NCBI GenBank assembly: GCA_048939465.1
Contig: JBHLPL010000022.1
Coordinates: forward strand, 1 to 22,160
Direction of reading: 5' to 3'
DNA length: 22,160 nucleotides
From: Promethearchaeota archaeon
GTDB lineage: Archaea; Asgardarchaeota; Odinarchaeia; Odinarchaeales; JBHLKK01
Shown: in pieces, positions 18,511 to 22,160 of the stretch
Layout: every line of letters starts with the position of its first letter
How positions within the stretch are numbered: position 1 is the first letter of the stretch
Program-made: the position numbers and the translations under genes
The notes under the pieces: generated by a model
Databases searched by the model: none
What the model saw: the letters and a program-made list of their open reading frames with translations, nothing else
What the model was told of the DNA's origin: nothing

Positions 18511-18560
18511 TACCGAGACTCCTCCTCACTCAAAGCTGAAATATCTTACTGTGTCTTTTT

Positions 18561-18919
18561 CTCCGCAAAAAGACTCCATCCGGGAGGATGGAGATGAATT
18601 GCGTTGTGTTTAAATGATTTTCCAGTAACTTAAACTTTGGGTAAGATGCTCGTAGGAGGAGGGTTGTTCAACGCGTGAGCGCAAAACCTAGTCTGAGAGC
18701 ATAGGTCTTTCGGGCACATCCTGCTCGACATGGCAGCTGGGTATTTGTGGCGCAAATAACAGAGTCAATCAGCCCCAAGGGCGGAAGAGACCTTGCTGTG
18801 CGGCCCTGAACTCGGAGCACAGAGATCTCCCCCTAGGAATCTGAGAAGCCAAAGTGCCCTCAGACGTATGAAACAGGTAGAGCGAGGAAAGCCCCTTTCG
18901 AAAGCTGGGGTAAGTTCGC
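18561..18919 (+). mobile_element. Degenerate IS200/IS605-family (tnpB-type) element, copy B (about 359 bp)
   Basis: Left end homologous to copy A with a perfect hairpin CTCCATCC-GGGA-GGATGGAG (18574-18593) and TATA at 18609-18615. ATGAAACAGG (18868-18877) is shared with copy A. Decayed right end GGAAAGCCCC...GGGGTAAGTTCGC; the right boundary is less certain. Confidence 0.68.
18680..18880 (+). pseudogene. tnpB: Possible heavily decayed tnpB fragments
   Basis: Fragments NLV*EHRSFGHILLD (compare NMVKNHRL..I.D) and CGPELGAQRSPPRNLR (same spacing as CG.ELDRD.NAARNL). Similarity is weak and judged by eye. Confidence 0.35.
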
Positions 18920-19121
18920 TGGTCAAGCTGTCTTCGTATAAAAATCCTTGCTCTTCTGTTTCGGCCAGTGTAGACCAAGGAGCTTGGCAAGGATCGGTGC
19001 TCCAACCAGTTTGCCAAAAAGGATAGATATTTATAATTTTGATGCCGAAAATATATACGTAGAGTAAAGAAAATTGAGGAATTCCCAATCATCTAAAAGG
19101 GCCATTGAGAGGAATTATACG

Positions 19122-22100
19122 TTGAAGATTCCGATTAGAAAATTAACATTTGTGTTTCTCATTTCACTGGTTGTTATGCTGGGCCAGTTCGTAGTTTTCT
19201 CAGAGTCTGCGACTCAACCCCCTCCCCAAAAATGGTCAGATCTGTATCTTCCACAGTACCCGGAAGTCAATGAAACCCTTGCATATAGCTCTTCTCTTCA
19301 CGAGGCTGGATTCCCCGTAGTTATGTATGACTTAAGTGGTGACGGAGTTCCAGAGATCTTATTTGGCTCCGATGACGGTGAATTCTATGTTTGGAATGCC
19401 AGTAACAACAACTATGCTCCAATCTGGAACGACAACATTGCATCATTAAATCCAACTGTGGCCAGTAAGTATGAGATATTCTCAGTAGCAGTGGGTGACA
19501 TGGATACGAACACTTCTTCCTTGGAGATTTTGGTCGGCACAGTCAACTATATTACTGTCCTAACCTGGAATGGCACAAGTTGCGTATATAATCGGACCGT
19601 ACAGTTGGCTGTCGGAGGAAGTGATATGATAGTGTCGAGTTTAATTGTGGAAGACATAGATAATGACTCCTATAATGAAATAATCGCAGCTATTGGAAGA
19701 AAAACGAACTATGCTGACAATGTTACATCTCATTCTGGAAAGATGTTTGTCTGGAAGGCAACCGATTTTCGGGACAATCCTGGTGACTGGAAACAAATCG
19801 ACGCCACGGATCTTAATAGGATTAAAACAAATTGGTATACCAACAGGGGATGCTATTCTCTGATTACGGGCGATCCCGATAACGATAATAAGACTGAGAT
19901 CATAGCGCATCTGGAATACTTGGGGGTTGGATGCACGGTCATTATAAATTCATCCACATACATTGATGAGTCGATTATTTCAGCTCCAGAAGGAAGGGGA
20001 TATGGACTGGCATGCGGCGATATTGACAATGACGGAGATAACGAATTGGCGATTGGAGACGGAGACGGAACCGTTTATATTATGTCTGGGGCTGGCAGCT
20101 CCTATTCCACTTCTAAGCCCATATTGATTCCAGGGGCCTCGTTGGTCTGGGGTCTAAAGATTGCCGATTCAGATAATGACACGCGTAATGAACTTATCGC
20201 CACGACGCTCCAAGGAGATCTCAGGATATTTCAGTGGGATAGTAGTTTCAACGAGCTTAAAGAAGAAGATACGAGTATCGAGTGGATTGGTGCGCAAGTT
20301 GGAGCTTTCAATTTCATTTGTGTGGGAGATCCAGATAACGATAGCTGGACCGAGCTTGCGTTGGGAAAAGCTGGACCGAATTCAGGCTTTGGTGTTTCCG
20401 ACTATGATTCAAAAGGGCATTTGCACGTCTTCGGTTATATTCCGACCTGGGCTAACGTGACAGCCCCGCCGCCATCCACGATTCAAGCGGCAACCCCCAT
20501 TATATTCAACGCACAGTATAACCGAACTGATTCTTCGGAGGGAATACCAGGCCTCCAACAAGTTGTTGGTATAGACAATGACACCCAGACACTGTGGGAA
20601 GGAGGATCACCCAGCTTCATAGATGAAGGTTCAGGAAACTATACTATCGAACTCCCCACGACTGGAGTGGAACCGGGATATCATGCCGTTAGAGTTATTC
20701 TGTTTGAGGTGGAATTTGAGCCTGGCGAGGTCTTTGTGAATTTCACTGTTTCGGGAGCAGATACAAACGTAACAGTACTCTGGGGGGCGGCAAATCTATC
20801 TGGATACTGGGAAACATACGGTGCCTTTAGCCCGTATGTTAACAGCACAGACAAGGGAATCGCGATTTTTTACTCTTATAATTCATCAGGAACACCAACT
20901 GGAATAATCGGCGCAAGGGGTCGAGCCTCACTGCTCGACCTTAATGGAACCATGATAGGGGGCAAAGAGCAACTGCCGTGGTATGACTTATTCGAATTAT
21001 ATGGAGGTAATGTCTCATACAGGGGAATCTACTATATTCAGCTAGATACTTACGGCCTGCACGTAGCAGATTTTAATTTGACCATTACTGTATGGAAGGA
21101 GAAATACAATCCCGCTGAACTATGGGTTATCGTTCACGTTGAACCTATTCCATCTAGCCTTGTAGCTGTTGGTGAGGAGATATCTATCTACGAAGGCGGG
21201 GATTTTGAAGTATCCGTATTCTTCAGGGACGATTACCATCTTAAGGATGTGAGTAACGGAGCTGTATCTCTCACAATAACAAATGGTACTTGGAACTGGG
21301 GCAACTATGTTTATCTCAGCTACGAGACATTCGGTCTATACAAGAGTGAAGAAATAAAACTGGAAGACATAGGTATCACCTCCGGAACCTATAGTATCAT
21401 CATAAATGGTAGTGCCCCTGACTACGAAGATTGTCAAACCAGCCTTCCCTTTGCGGTCAATCTGAAGGCAAATGTTGTACTGATTCTTTCTCAGCTTCCG
21501 TCCGAAATCATGGCCGGAGAATCACTGCCTGTAGAAGCAACACTGACTTTCGAAAACGGAACGGCCGTTATAAACCAGGACGTGAAATTCACATACACAT
21601 ATGATGGTCTGCCGCACGACGGTCCAACTGTAGTCACAGATGAAAATGGAAAGGCAAGCATAACGATTACTCCACCTGCGGGAACTACAAGAGTCGAAAT
21701 CAGCGTAAGATACGACGGCTCGGAAGAGACAAACCCGATTACGAGCGTAGCTTCTACTGCTGCTGGAGGAACTTTTGTACGGATTGTTACGATCTGGGAC
21801 AGAATGATAGAAATGCTGCCTTTTGCAGGAATCGGTGCAGCGGTGGTTGGAGGTTCGGCATTTTCATTTCATCGATTTGTAAGAGTACCCAAGAGAAGAC
21901 GCAAACTTGAAGAATTGAATAGGATAGCTGAGACTTTCGACAACTTCGAAAATCTGAGGCACATAATAGTCTTGGAAAAGAATAGTGGTTTGACTATCTA
22001 TGATCAATCATTTACAGGTACAAACCTTGACCCGTCTCTAGTAAGCGGATTTATCCAAGCGATTTCCTCATTTGGAGCTGAGCTTACCAAGAAGGCTGAT

Positions 22101-22160
22101 GGAAAGCTCAGAGAGTTAACCTATGAGGGTTTCCGACTGCTGTTAGACGAAGGTGACTAT
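19122..22160 (+). CDS. Large cell-surface protein, partial (runs off the window): signal peptide, 7 FG-GAP/VCBS-like repeats, about 4 Ig-like domains, TM helix, cytoplasmic longin-like domain
   Basis: Stop-free frame of 1013 codons from TTG 19122 (SD GAGAGG; upstream in-frame TAA at 19065). Signal peptide MKIPIRKLTFVFLISLVVMLGQFVVFSESA. Seven D-x-[DS]-x-[DN]-x-x-x-E loops. About 25 N-x-S/T sequons by manual count. TM at about 21813-21869 then HRFVRVPKRRRK. Tail LRHIIVLEKNSGLTIYDQSF...LDPSLVSGFIQAISSFGAEL...LRELTYEGFRLLLDEG. Confidence 0.9.
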   Translation, partial: MKIPIRKLTFVFLISLVVMLGQFVVFSESATQPPPQKWSDLYLPQYPEVNETLAYSSSLHEAGFPVVMYDLSGDGVPEILFGSDDGEFYVWNASNNNYAPIWNDNIASLNPTVASKYEIFSVAVGDMDTNTSSLEILVGTVNYITVLTWNGTSCVYNRTVQLAVGGSDMIVSSLIVEDIDNDSYNEIIAAIGRKTNYADNVTSHSGKMFVWKATDFRDNPGDWKQIDATDLNRIKTNWYTNRGCYSLITGDPDNDNKTEIIAHLEYLGVGCTVIINSSTYIDESIISAPEGRGYGLACGDIDNDGDNELAIGDGDGTVYIMSGAGSSYSTSKPILIPGASLVWGLKIADSDNDTRNELIATTLQGDLRIFQWDSSFNELKEEDTSIEWIGAQVGAFNFICVGDPDNDSWTELALGKAGPNSGFGVSDYDSKGHLHVFGYIPTWANVTAPPPSTIQAATPIIFNAQYNRTDSSEGIPGLQQVVGIDNDTQTLWEGGSPSFIDEGSGNYTIELPTTGVEPGYHAVRVILFEVEFEPGEVFVNFTVSGADTNVTVLWGAANLSGYWETYGAFSPYVNSTDKGIAIFYSYNSSGTPTGIIGARGRASLLDLNGTMIGGKEQLPWYDLFELYGGNVSYRGIYYIQLDTYGLHVADFNLTITVWKEKYNPAELWVIVHVEPIPSSLVAVGEEISIYEGGDFEVSVFFRDDYHLKDVSNGAVSLTITNGTWNWGNYVYLSYETFGLYKSEEIKLEDIGITSGTYSIIINGSAPDYEDCQTSLPFAVNLKANVVLILSQLPSEIMAGESLPVEATLTFENGTAVINQDVKFTYTYDGLPHDGPTVVTDENGKASITITPPAGTTRVEISVRYDGSEETNPITSVASTAAGGTFVRIVTIWDRMIEMLPFAGIGAAVVGGSAFSFHRFVRVPKRRRKLEELNRIAETFDNFENLRHIIVLEKNSGLTIYDQSFTGTNLDPSLVSGFIQAISSFGAELTKKADGKLRELTYEGFRLLLDEGDY

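Follow-up and report, generated by a model that had tools for sequence, protein, structure and literature searches.

The window analysed here is an entire contig (C39; 22,160 bp) of a 1.96-Mb, 91%-complete metagenome-assembled genome (MAG) of an Asgard archaeon, and its last gene encodes a large surface protein. The architecture of this protein is well supported: it is a type I, N-glycosylated protein with an FG-GAP head, a stalk, a single transmembrane (TM) helix and a cytoplasmic tail in which a longin domain and then a winged helix are predicted. A very large family of Asgard membrane proteins with variable outer parts has this longin-winged-helix tail in common, and the window protein is a lineage-restricted FG-GAP member of this receptor-like family, which is apparently undescribed. 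A limited full-text literature search found no description of either the membrane-anchored family or its FG-GAP member; longin expansions and domain shuffling in Asgard archaea are already known (bioRxiv 10.1101/2020.10.19.343400; PMC10933270; PMC11188069). We propose, with an even chance of being right, that the protein is a surface receptor whose tail serves as a docking or regulatory platform, with a small GTPase as the most likely client.

Architecture of the surface protein

The reading frame that holds the gene (19074-22160, forward strand) is open up to the last base without a stop, as the original prediction had stated, and the gene is a real one cut by the contig end. Its missing part was sized by a full-length orthologue, P0006 (1143 aa), which is 73% identical over 1015 residues; a second close orthologue, P0152 from a MAG of the same genus, is 80% identical to P0006. 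The missing 3' end is absent elsewhere in the assembly, where a search returned only a 40%-identical paralogue (P0002) on contig C142. TTG at 19122 is likely the start codon because it aligns with Met1 of P0006, is preceded by GAGG and is where the public record begins. The presumed promoter region directly upstream is the sole part of the 611-nt intergenic region that is common to the orthologous locus L004 (82% identity over 120 nt). Paralogue sequence was also encountered at two contig ends: the end of C55 (1-400, reverse strand) and the start of C142 (1-328) carry N- and C-terminal parts of one or more paralogues, and overlap by 328 nt with an identity of only 90%. There must be two or more close copies or strain variants, and these break the assembly.

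Behind an N-terminal signal peptide with a presumed cleavage site lies a head of seven repeats, each made of a hydrophobic strand and an acidic DxDxDxxxE loop. The loops start at residues 86, 142, 194, 267, 316, 365 and 419 (nt 19329, 19497, 19653, 19872, 20019, 20166 and 20328), at intervals of 49-73 residues, and all seven keep their position across six sequences, namely the window protein and five orthologues or paralogues (the paralogues being 41-45% identical). Pfam FG-GAP_3 matches three stretches of the head with 48.4 bits (E=1.4e-12, cut-off 26.9) and BBS2_Mid matches with 36.1 bits (cut-off 27); the FG-GAP model itself, at 20.3 bits, falls just below its cut-off of 22.1. The seven acidic loops and the seven-repeat FG-GAP head put forward in the original prediction are thus borne out at the sequence level: every quoted motif is present, regularly spaced and conserved in position among relatives. 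The repeats bear the sequence signature expected of a Ca-binding 7-bladed propeller.

Propellers of the FG-GAP kind occur widely in prokaryotes (PMC3192720, PMC8023676), and a profile of the head was compared with the PDB. It found CRTAC1 (9.6e-8) and ITFG2 (1.2e-5), whereas integrin alpha5 (0.068) and alphaIIb (0.075-0.8) were not significant. The head is thus a member of the FG-GAP/VCBS propeller superfamily without a special tie to integrins. The cellular setting differs from that of its best matches: ITFG2 (of KICSTOR) and BBS2/BBS7 are cytosolic, whereas the window head is predicted to be extracellular and glycosylated, and none of CRTAC1, ITFG2 and BBS2/BBS7 has a longin tail.

The stalk is probably made of immunoglobulin (Ig)-like beta-sandwiches. 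Its membrane-proximal segment (21528-21752, residues 819-893) resembles Big_1/Invasin_D3 with 27.8 bits, below the cut-off of 34.9, and the Pfam matches to Big_1, Invasin_D3 and MG4 in this segment are all sub-threshold. Of the roughly four Ig-like domains named in the original prediction, this segment is the sole one with a Pfam counterpart. Stalk look-alikes found with a language model are archaeal surface proteins with Big_3_5, MG4 or Big_1 domains (scores 0.93-0.94). N-x-S/T sequons are strongly enriched in the ectodomain, which holds 26 of them where 8.8 would be expected (at most 18 in 1000 shuffles); the tail part has none. This distribution fits an ectodomain that lies outside the cell and is N-glycosylated.

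The single TM helix and the polybasic stop-transfer of the original prediction were both found (Table 1), and the type I topology it had proposed is supported. These features are shared beyond the window: a (V/I)-P-basic motif after the TM helix recurs across relatives of the tail family, and a hydrophobic segment lies just ahead of the tail in 137 of 151 family members.

Table 1. Coordinates of the surface-protein gene and its parts in the window, and of longin-GTPase fusions on other contigs of the same genome
Feature	Position	Strand	Details
Upstream leader, presumed promoter region	19001-19121	+	TTTATAA-like box near 19031; GAGG ~10 nt before start
Surface-protein coding sequence	19122-22160	+	3'-truncated at contig end; 1013 codons present, ~132 missing
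N-terminal signal peptide	19122-19211	+	basic n-region, hydrophobic core, then ...FSESA; hydrophobicity scan and orthologue alignment
Seven FG-GAP repeats, putative 7-bladed Ca-binding beta-propeller	19287-20477	+	Pfam, loop scan, orthologue alignment, head profile
Extracellular stalk	20478-21788	+	~440 aa, sequon-rich; sub-threshold Pfam matches and language-model look-alikes
Single Gly/Ala-rich TM helix	21813-21869 (residues 914-932)	+	MLPFAGIGAAVVGGSAFSF; Kyte-Doolittle average ~1.55
Juxtamembrane Pro-polybasic stop-transfer	21870-21905	+	HRFVRVPKRRRK; read directly from the sequence
Start of predicted cytoplasmic longin and winged-helix module	21906-22160	+	first 85 of ~217 residues: helix 0, strands 1-2, helix 1, strands 3-4
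Longin-GTPase fusion (Fuz_longin_1-type, Arf-like)	C138:81431-82318	+	
Longin-GTPase fusion (Fuz_longin_1-type, Arf-like)	C31:19784-20761	-	
Longin-GTPase fusion (Fuz_longin_1-type, Ras superfamily)	C148:7155-7895	+	

The longin and winged-helix tail and its family

The window protein matches positions 2-88 of the tail profile (E 2.7e-27) before the contig ends. The complete tail of ~217 residues was taken from the paralogue P0002 and the orthologue P0006, which both carry the whole longin and winged-helix module of ~215 aa. A single-sequence AlphaFold2 (AF2) model of the paralogue tail was unusable, with a predicted local distance difference test (pLDDT) score of 41.5, and was replaced by a model of the P0006 tail built on an alignment of 104 homologues, which reached a pLDDT of 92.2 and a predicted template modelling (pTM) score of 0.85. 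In this model, helix 0 is followed by a beta-beta-alpha-beta-beta-beta-alpha-alpha domain (17-145; E17-24, E30-35, H43-60, E70-73, E76-82, E86-92, H98-114 and onward) and by a C-terminal winged helix of helix-strand-helix-helix-strand layout (~158-217). The first of these domains has the longin arrangement, an antiparallel sheet of five strands with a single helix covering one side and a pair covering the other. The window segments IIVLEK, GLTIYDQSF and DPSLVSGFIQAISSFGAEL map to strands 1-2 and helix 1 of the modelled longin. The best-conserved part of the tail family is the helix 1 motif LxSGFLxAIxSFG, and Arg at position 87 is nearly invariant.

Structure comparison of the model consistently returned longins and their relatives. 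Foldseek placed the longin part, at E ~1e-4, with TRAPP, Mon1-Ccz1, Fuzzy, the adaptor sigma chains, the Rag C-terminal domains, MglB and Asgard roadblocks, and zeta-COP was a further neighbour. In VIA, the top match was Fuzzy LD1 (7q3d_C; Z 12.3, 123 aligned residues, root-mean-square deviation 2.9), followed by Bet5 (3cue_C; 11.7), AP-4 sigma and Sec22 (11.6) and the Lokiarchaeal longin 8yqg_B (11.5). Longin matches had Z 10-12.3 over 114-132 residues and roadblocks Z 9-11 over ~100 residues; among the best 50 matches listed, rows 1-49 belonged to the longin or roadblock superfamily. Sequence searches with the tail gave no Pfam family match, curated longin models included, among the 104 members scanned, and nothing significant among PDB sequences. 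The model thus predicts a longin fold followed by a winged helix. The longin-like cytoplasmic domain suspected in the original prediction was right at the fold level; the winged helix, which lies past the contig end and is visible only through the orthologue tail, was absent from that account.

In its ancestry, the tail combines an Asgard longin of Fuzzy/Mon1-LD1 type with a winged helix. The tri-longin Rab guanine-nucleotide exchange factors (GEFs) Fuzzy/Inturned, Mon1-Ccz1 and HPS1-HPS4, as well as TRAPP Bet5/Trs23, have the same beta-beta-alpha-beta-beta-beta-alpha-alpha fold; paralogous longins of the same genome pass the Pfam model Fuz_longin_1, whereas the tail matches no Pfam longin model. 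These GEFs are soluble heterodimers, whereas the tail has only one longin, which is attached directly to a TM helix and continues into a winged helix. Asgard longin and roadblock proteins come from the same phylum and share the fold (8yqg_B Z 11.5; Asgard roadblocks Z 9-11), but the Asgard longin-Arf fusions and the Lokiarchaeal Roadblock-Longin protein (8yqg) are soluble, whereas the window longin sits behind a glycosylated ectodomain and a TM helix and is joined to a winged helix.

The reach of the tail family is wide. A phmmer search with the tail against 1.84 billion representatives found 1032 clusters at E<=1e-3, of which 516 also pass E<=1e-10; the proteins are 140-3000 aa long. At E<=1e-10 the tail profile hits 185 of the 201 phylum genomes that were sampled, most of them more than once or twice, a count that takes in longin-only matches. 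The more distant tail relatives were found in MAGs with the labels Hermod-, Hel-, Prometheo- and Odinarchaeia. A median of 888 aa precedes the tail (151 members). Of 104 full-length matches, 61 end with the tail; the remaining ~40% extend a further ~200 or 400 aa in helical/TPR-like sequence, for which Pfam gave no match. Members seen are named 'hypothetical protein' in their sources, save one short member called 'predicted DNA-binding protein', and the atlas neighbours of the tail are unnamed Asgard clusters.

The outer parts, by comparison, are narrowly distributed. A search with the ectodomain yields only 3 close relatives, as against more than 1000 clusters for the tail, and within its own genome FG-GAP_3 matches only the window gene and the paralogue on C55. 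Seven other long family members have no ectodomain Pfam family at E<=1e-4. The FG-GAP head is thus one lineage-restricted version among the outer parts of the family.

Two further observations concern the distribution of the family. In three loci from Promethearchaeota MAGs (L029, L030 and L031), up to three tail-family genes of ~765 aa stand in tandem on one strand, which suggests local duplication of receptor-like genes. A record titled Candidatus Deferrimicrobium sp., a bacterial MAG (L023), holds a 736-aa longin-family protein of Asgard type that shares its architecture with Helarchaeota proteins in L022, L024 and L025, L024 having PCI/winged-helix repeats. L023 is probably a mis-binned Asgard contig and not a bacterial homologue.

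Small GTPases and rival readings

The case for a GTPase client begins in the same genome. The tail profile matches eight other open reading frames (ORFs) there through the longin part, among them longin and winged-helix proteins, a KaiC-like ATPase fused to a longin and a winged helix, a polytopic membrane protein with a terminal longin, and a longin and coiled-coil protein. Two of the matches consist of an N-terminal longin and a C-terminal Arf-family GTPase (Arf E ~1e-18), an arrangement already reported in Asgards (PMC4917890, PMC11914678). Aligned by hhalign to one of these fusions, the tail profile gave a probability of 97.8% (E 8.5e-13, 120 columns); the longin part of the tail is thus homologous to the longins fused to Arf-like GTPases. 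Since the longins of the fusions pass Pfam Fuz_longin_1 (27.2-28.7 bits, cut-off 26.1), the tail is tied indirectly to a curated longin family. A third fusion, on C148, matches Fuz_longin_1 and Ras but not the tail profile. In all three, the domains stand in the reverse of the Rag GTPase order.

A second line of evidence comes from gene order and structure. One Lokiarchaeal branch has a tail-family gene with a Ras-family GTPase gene 56 bp downstream in the same orientation (L028; also L027, which comes from a related MAG). Together with the longin-GTPase fusions, this gene pair hints, in the manner of a Rosetta stone, that this type of longin may work with small GTPases. Most of the listed structural neighbours of the tail also belong to small-GTPase-linked complexes (GEFs, GTPase-activating proteins (GAPs), Arf-recruited coats and the signal recognition particle receptor SR alpha/beta), the exceptions being the longin SNAREs Sec22 and VAMP7. 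The genome also encodes 18 Ras-superfamily and 8 roadblock matches. We also noted that the paired GTPases (L028:6753-7322 and L027:1475-2023, both on the forward strand) have WDFAGEE in switch II, in which the usual catalytic Gln is replaced by Glu; the Ras-like proteins of the window's own genome mostly have ...AGQE or GGQE.

In the proposed mechanism, the propeller head would bind an external ligand or surface, for adhesion or sensing, and the longin-winged-helix tail would act as a platform for docking or regulation, fixed to the cytoplasmic side of the membrane. Its most likely client would be a small Arf-like or Rab/Ras-like GTPase, by analogy with the platforms of Mon1-Ccz1, Fuzzy-Inturned, TRAPP and SRX-SRbeta. 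Binding or clustering outside the cell would thereby be linked to a GTPase switch inside.

Several results weigh against this mechanism. No GTPase, roadblock or longin gene is found among the upstream window genes that flank the surface-protein gene, and no small GTPase or roadblock gene neighbours the orthologue, whose downstream genes encode an M48 peptidase, an unknown protein, a Zn-ribbon protein, a GPN-loop GTPase and an ADP-ribosylglycohydrolase; a vWA gene is likewise missing from both the window and the orthologous locus. The GTPase, roadblock and vWA neighbours that the original prediction had suggested looking for are therefore found at neither locus. Among 40 sampled family loci from other Asgard genomes, only 9 have a small GTPase within ~7 kb downstream, 7 of these 9 being one syntenic, convergent group in one family, and a roadblock gene lies near 2. 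We judge this proximity not clearly above chance for GTPase-rich genomes. None of the 150 best family members has a GTPase domain fused to its tail. Three runs of complex prediction for two L028 tails with the adjacent Ras-like GTPase disagree (0.54, 0.03 and 0.13, with the mark at 0.32) and count neither for nor against binding. Longin and roadblock folds also have roles unrelated to GTPases, and the tail's lack of a match to any curated Pfam longin family leaves its link to them indirect. The GP motif that GAP-type longins carry in the strand 1-2 loop (PMC12290439) is absent from the tail alignment, which has a conserved Gly followed by variable residues. Overall, GTPase coupling is plausible but unproven.

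A GAP-type longin reading of the tail was rejected on account of this missing motif. FLCN, SMCR8 and NPRL2 share with the tail the order of a longin and then a small C-terminal domain, and the tail has its near-invariant R87, but neither the folliculin nor the NPR2/3 families of Pfam match it. NPRL2-like architectures have been reported in Asgards (bioRxiv 10.1101/2020.10.19.343400). A separate observation concerns gene order in one tail-family subgroup, where a convergent unit lies 1.5-3.5 kb downstream (L043:2692-5786, reverse strand; syntenic in L040-L042, L055, L057 and L059). It encodes a DUF2070 membrane protein, an Arf-like GTPase and a 184-aa protein with a weak winged-helix match, and this DUF2070-Arf unit is kept across several genera of one Asgard family.

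The main rival, to which we give tentative weight, is a structural or adhesive envelope protein whose tail only anchors, oligomerises or sorts it, without a GTPase switch, and might bind cytoskeletal, ESCRT or PCI-like winged-helix partners. It is typical for archaeal surface proteins to be heavily enriched in sequons and to have a large ectodomain that varies, and no GTPase neighbour is conserved. Soluble relatives join the longin to PCI/winged-helix repeats (as in L024), a KaiC-like ATPase or coiled coils, and such varied partners suggest a general protein-protein adaptor. The helical/TPR-like extensions after the tail of ~40% of family members accord with this rival too, as does the Gly/Ala-rich TM helix, which would permit helix-helix packing. 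Set against it are the helix 1 motif, the best-conserved one of the tail, which is common to longins fused to Arf-like GTPases, and the predominance of small-GTPase-linked complexes among the structural neighbours listed.

It is quite improbable, in our estimation, that the protein is a membrane-tethered one-component regulator with ToxR/CadC-like logic, in which the ectodomain would sense a signal, the longin would dimerise or sense, and the winged helix would bind DNA at the membrane or after proteolytic release. The AF2 model of the tail does end in a canonical winged helix, one source calls a short family member a 'predicted DNA-binding protein', TrmB or HTH_47 clusters are among the atlas look-alikes (at low scores of 0.78), and an M48 peptidase gene adjoins the orthologue. 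However, the winged helix has a median net charge of ~+1.5 and its presumed recognition helix one of ~0, its conserved positions are hydrophobic or acidic and none is basic, and no Pfam DNA-binding helix-turn-helix (HTH) family matches at E<=1 in 104 members.

A true integrin-alpha homologue or precursor, forming a heterodimeric adhesion receptor with a beta-like partner, is in our view extremely improbable: the order of parts (seven FG-GAP repeats, a beta-sandwich leg, one TM helix), the acidic Ca-type loops and the weak head-profile matches to alpha5 and alphaIIb speak for it, but CRTAC1 and ITFG2 score far above integrins, seven FG-GAP repeats are common to many non-integrin families, no thigh, calf-1 or calf-2 family (Integrin_alpha2 and relatives) matches at E<=1, and in place of GFFKR and a short tail the protein has HRFVRVPKRRRK and then a folded module of 217 residues. 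In integrin alpha chains, acidic loops occupy only the last three or four blades, whereas all seven repeats of the window head have one, as in prokaryotic FG-GAP_3/VCBS propellers. The genome gives no match to Integrin_beta (PF00362), the partner family that the original prediction had proposed to look for, a weak point given that control genomes are equally silent. The likeness to integrin alpha raised there thus finds no support as homology beyond the FG-GAP superfamily; the window protein resembles integrin alpha in outline, and by descent its head is a generic FG-GAP propeller.

Genomic surroundings and significance

The rest of the contig (295-18510) is a dense cluster of redox and oxidative-stress genes of an anaerobe. 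It encodes a ferritin-like protein, a DUF438-hemerythrin-PAS protein, SufBD with an ABC ATPase, thioredoxin-reductase-like and SAF/altronate-dehydratase-like proteins, the alpha and beta subunits of a 2-oxoacid:ferredoxin oxidoreductase, an MBL-rhodanese protein, an HhH-GPD glycosylase, a peroxiredoxin, two desulfoferrodoxin-type proteins, DJ-1/PfpI, a flavodiiron protein, rubrerythrin, an Lrp/AsnC protein and a LigD 3'-phosphoesterase domain. The gene order rubrerythrin, Lrp, small TM protein, LigD_N and receptor is kept in the orthologous locus. Scanning the window for Rfam families and tRNAs yielded no match.

Just upstream of the receptor gene, at 18554-18925 on the forward strand, lies a non-coding element of ~350 nt that is repeated in the genome. 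It has 24 matches there, ~10 of them near full length with 68-74% identity, and many more copies are limited to its first ~60 nt, which hold a hairpin (CTCCATCC-GGGA-GGATGGAG) and a TTTAAAT box. The element is also present in two MAGs of the same genus (14 and 3 matches) and absent from the orthologous locus. In the RNAalifold prediction, several stems form a closed structure with 10 compensatory pairs; Rfam returns nothing even at E<=1, and the copies share no flanking protein gene. The element is a candidate genus-specific structured RNA or miniature inverted-repeat transposable element (MITE), and two minus-strand ORFs of 107 aa in this region are probably spurious.

Asgard archaea carry many longin, roadblock and small-GTPase genes. 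In the protein described here, a large glycosylated ectodomain outside the cell is backed by a longin module anchored on the cytoplasmic side of the membrane, and the same tail occurs in more than 1000 clusters phylum-wide. A bolder generalization, which we consider rather unlikely, is that the family comprises pan-Asgard single-pass receptors that report binding to Arf-/Rab-like GTPases through a membrane-tethered longin platform of the Fuzzy/Mon1 type. If true, this would represent a prokaryotic forerunner of the receptor- or cargo-driven GTPase recruitment of eukaryotic membrane traffic and adhesion signalling. Should the tail have no GTPase role, the family would still be an important element of the Asgard cell surface that has yet to be characterised. 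If the tail does recruit or regulate a GTPase, the family would form the input side of an archaeal GTPase system, and the 217-residue tail in recombinant form, the candidate GTPases and those cultured Asgard strains in which family members occur would offer experimental handles on the pre-eukaryotic origin of receptor-coupled trafficking and adhesion.

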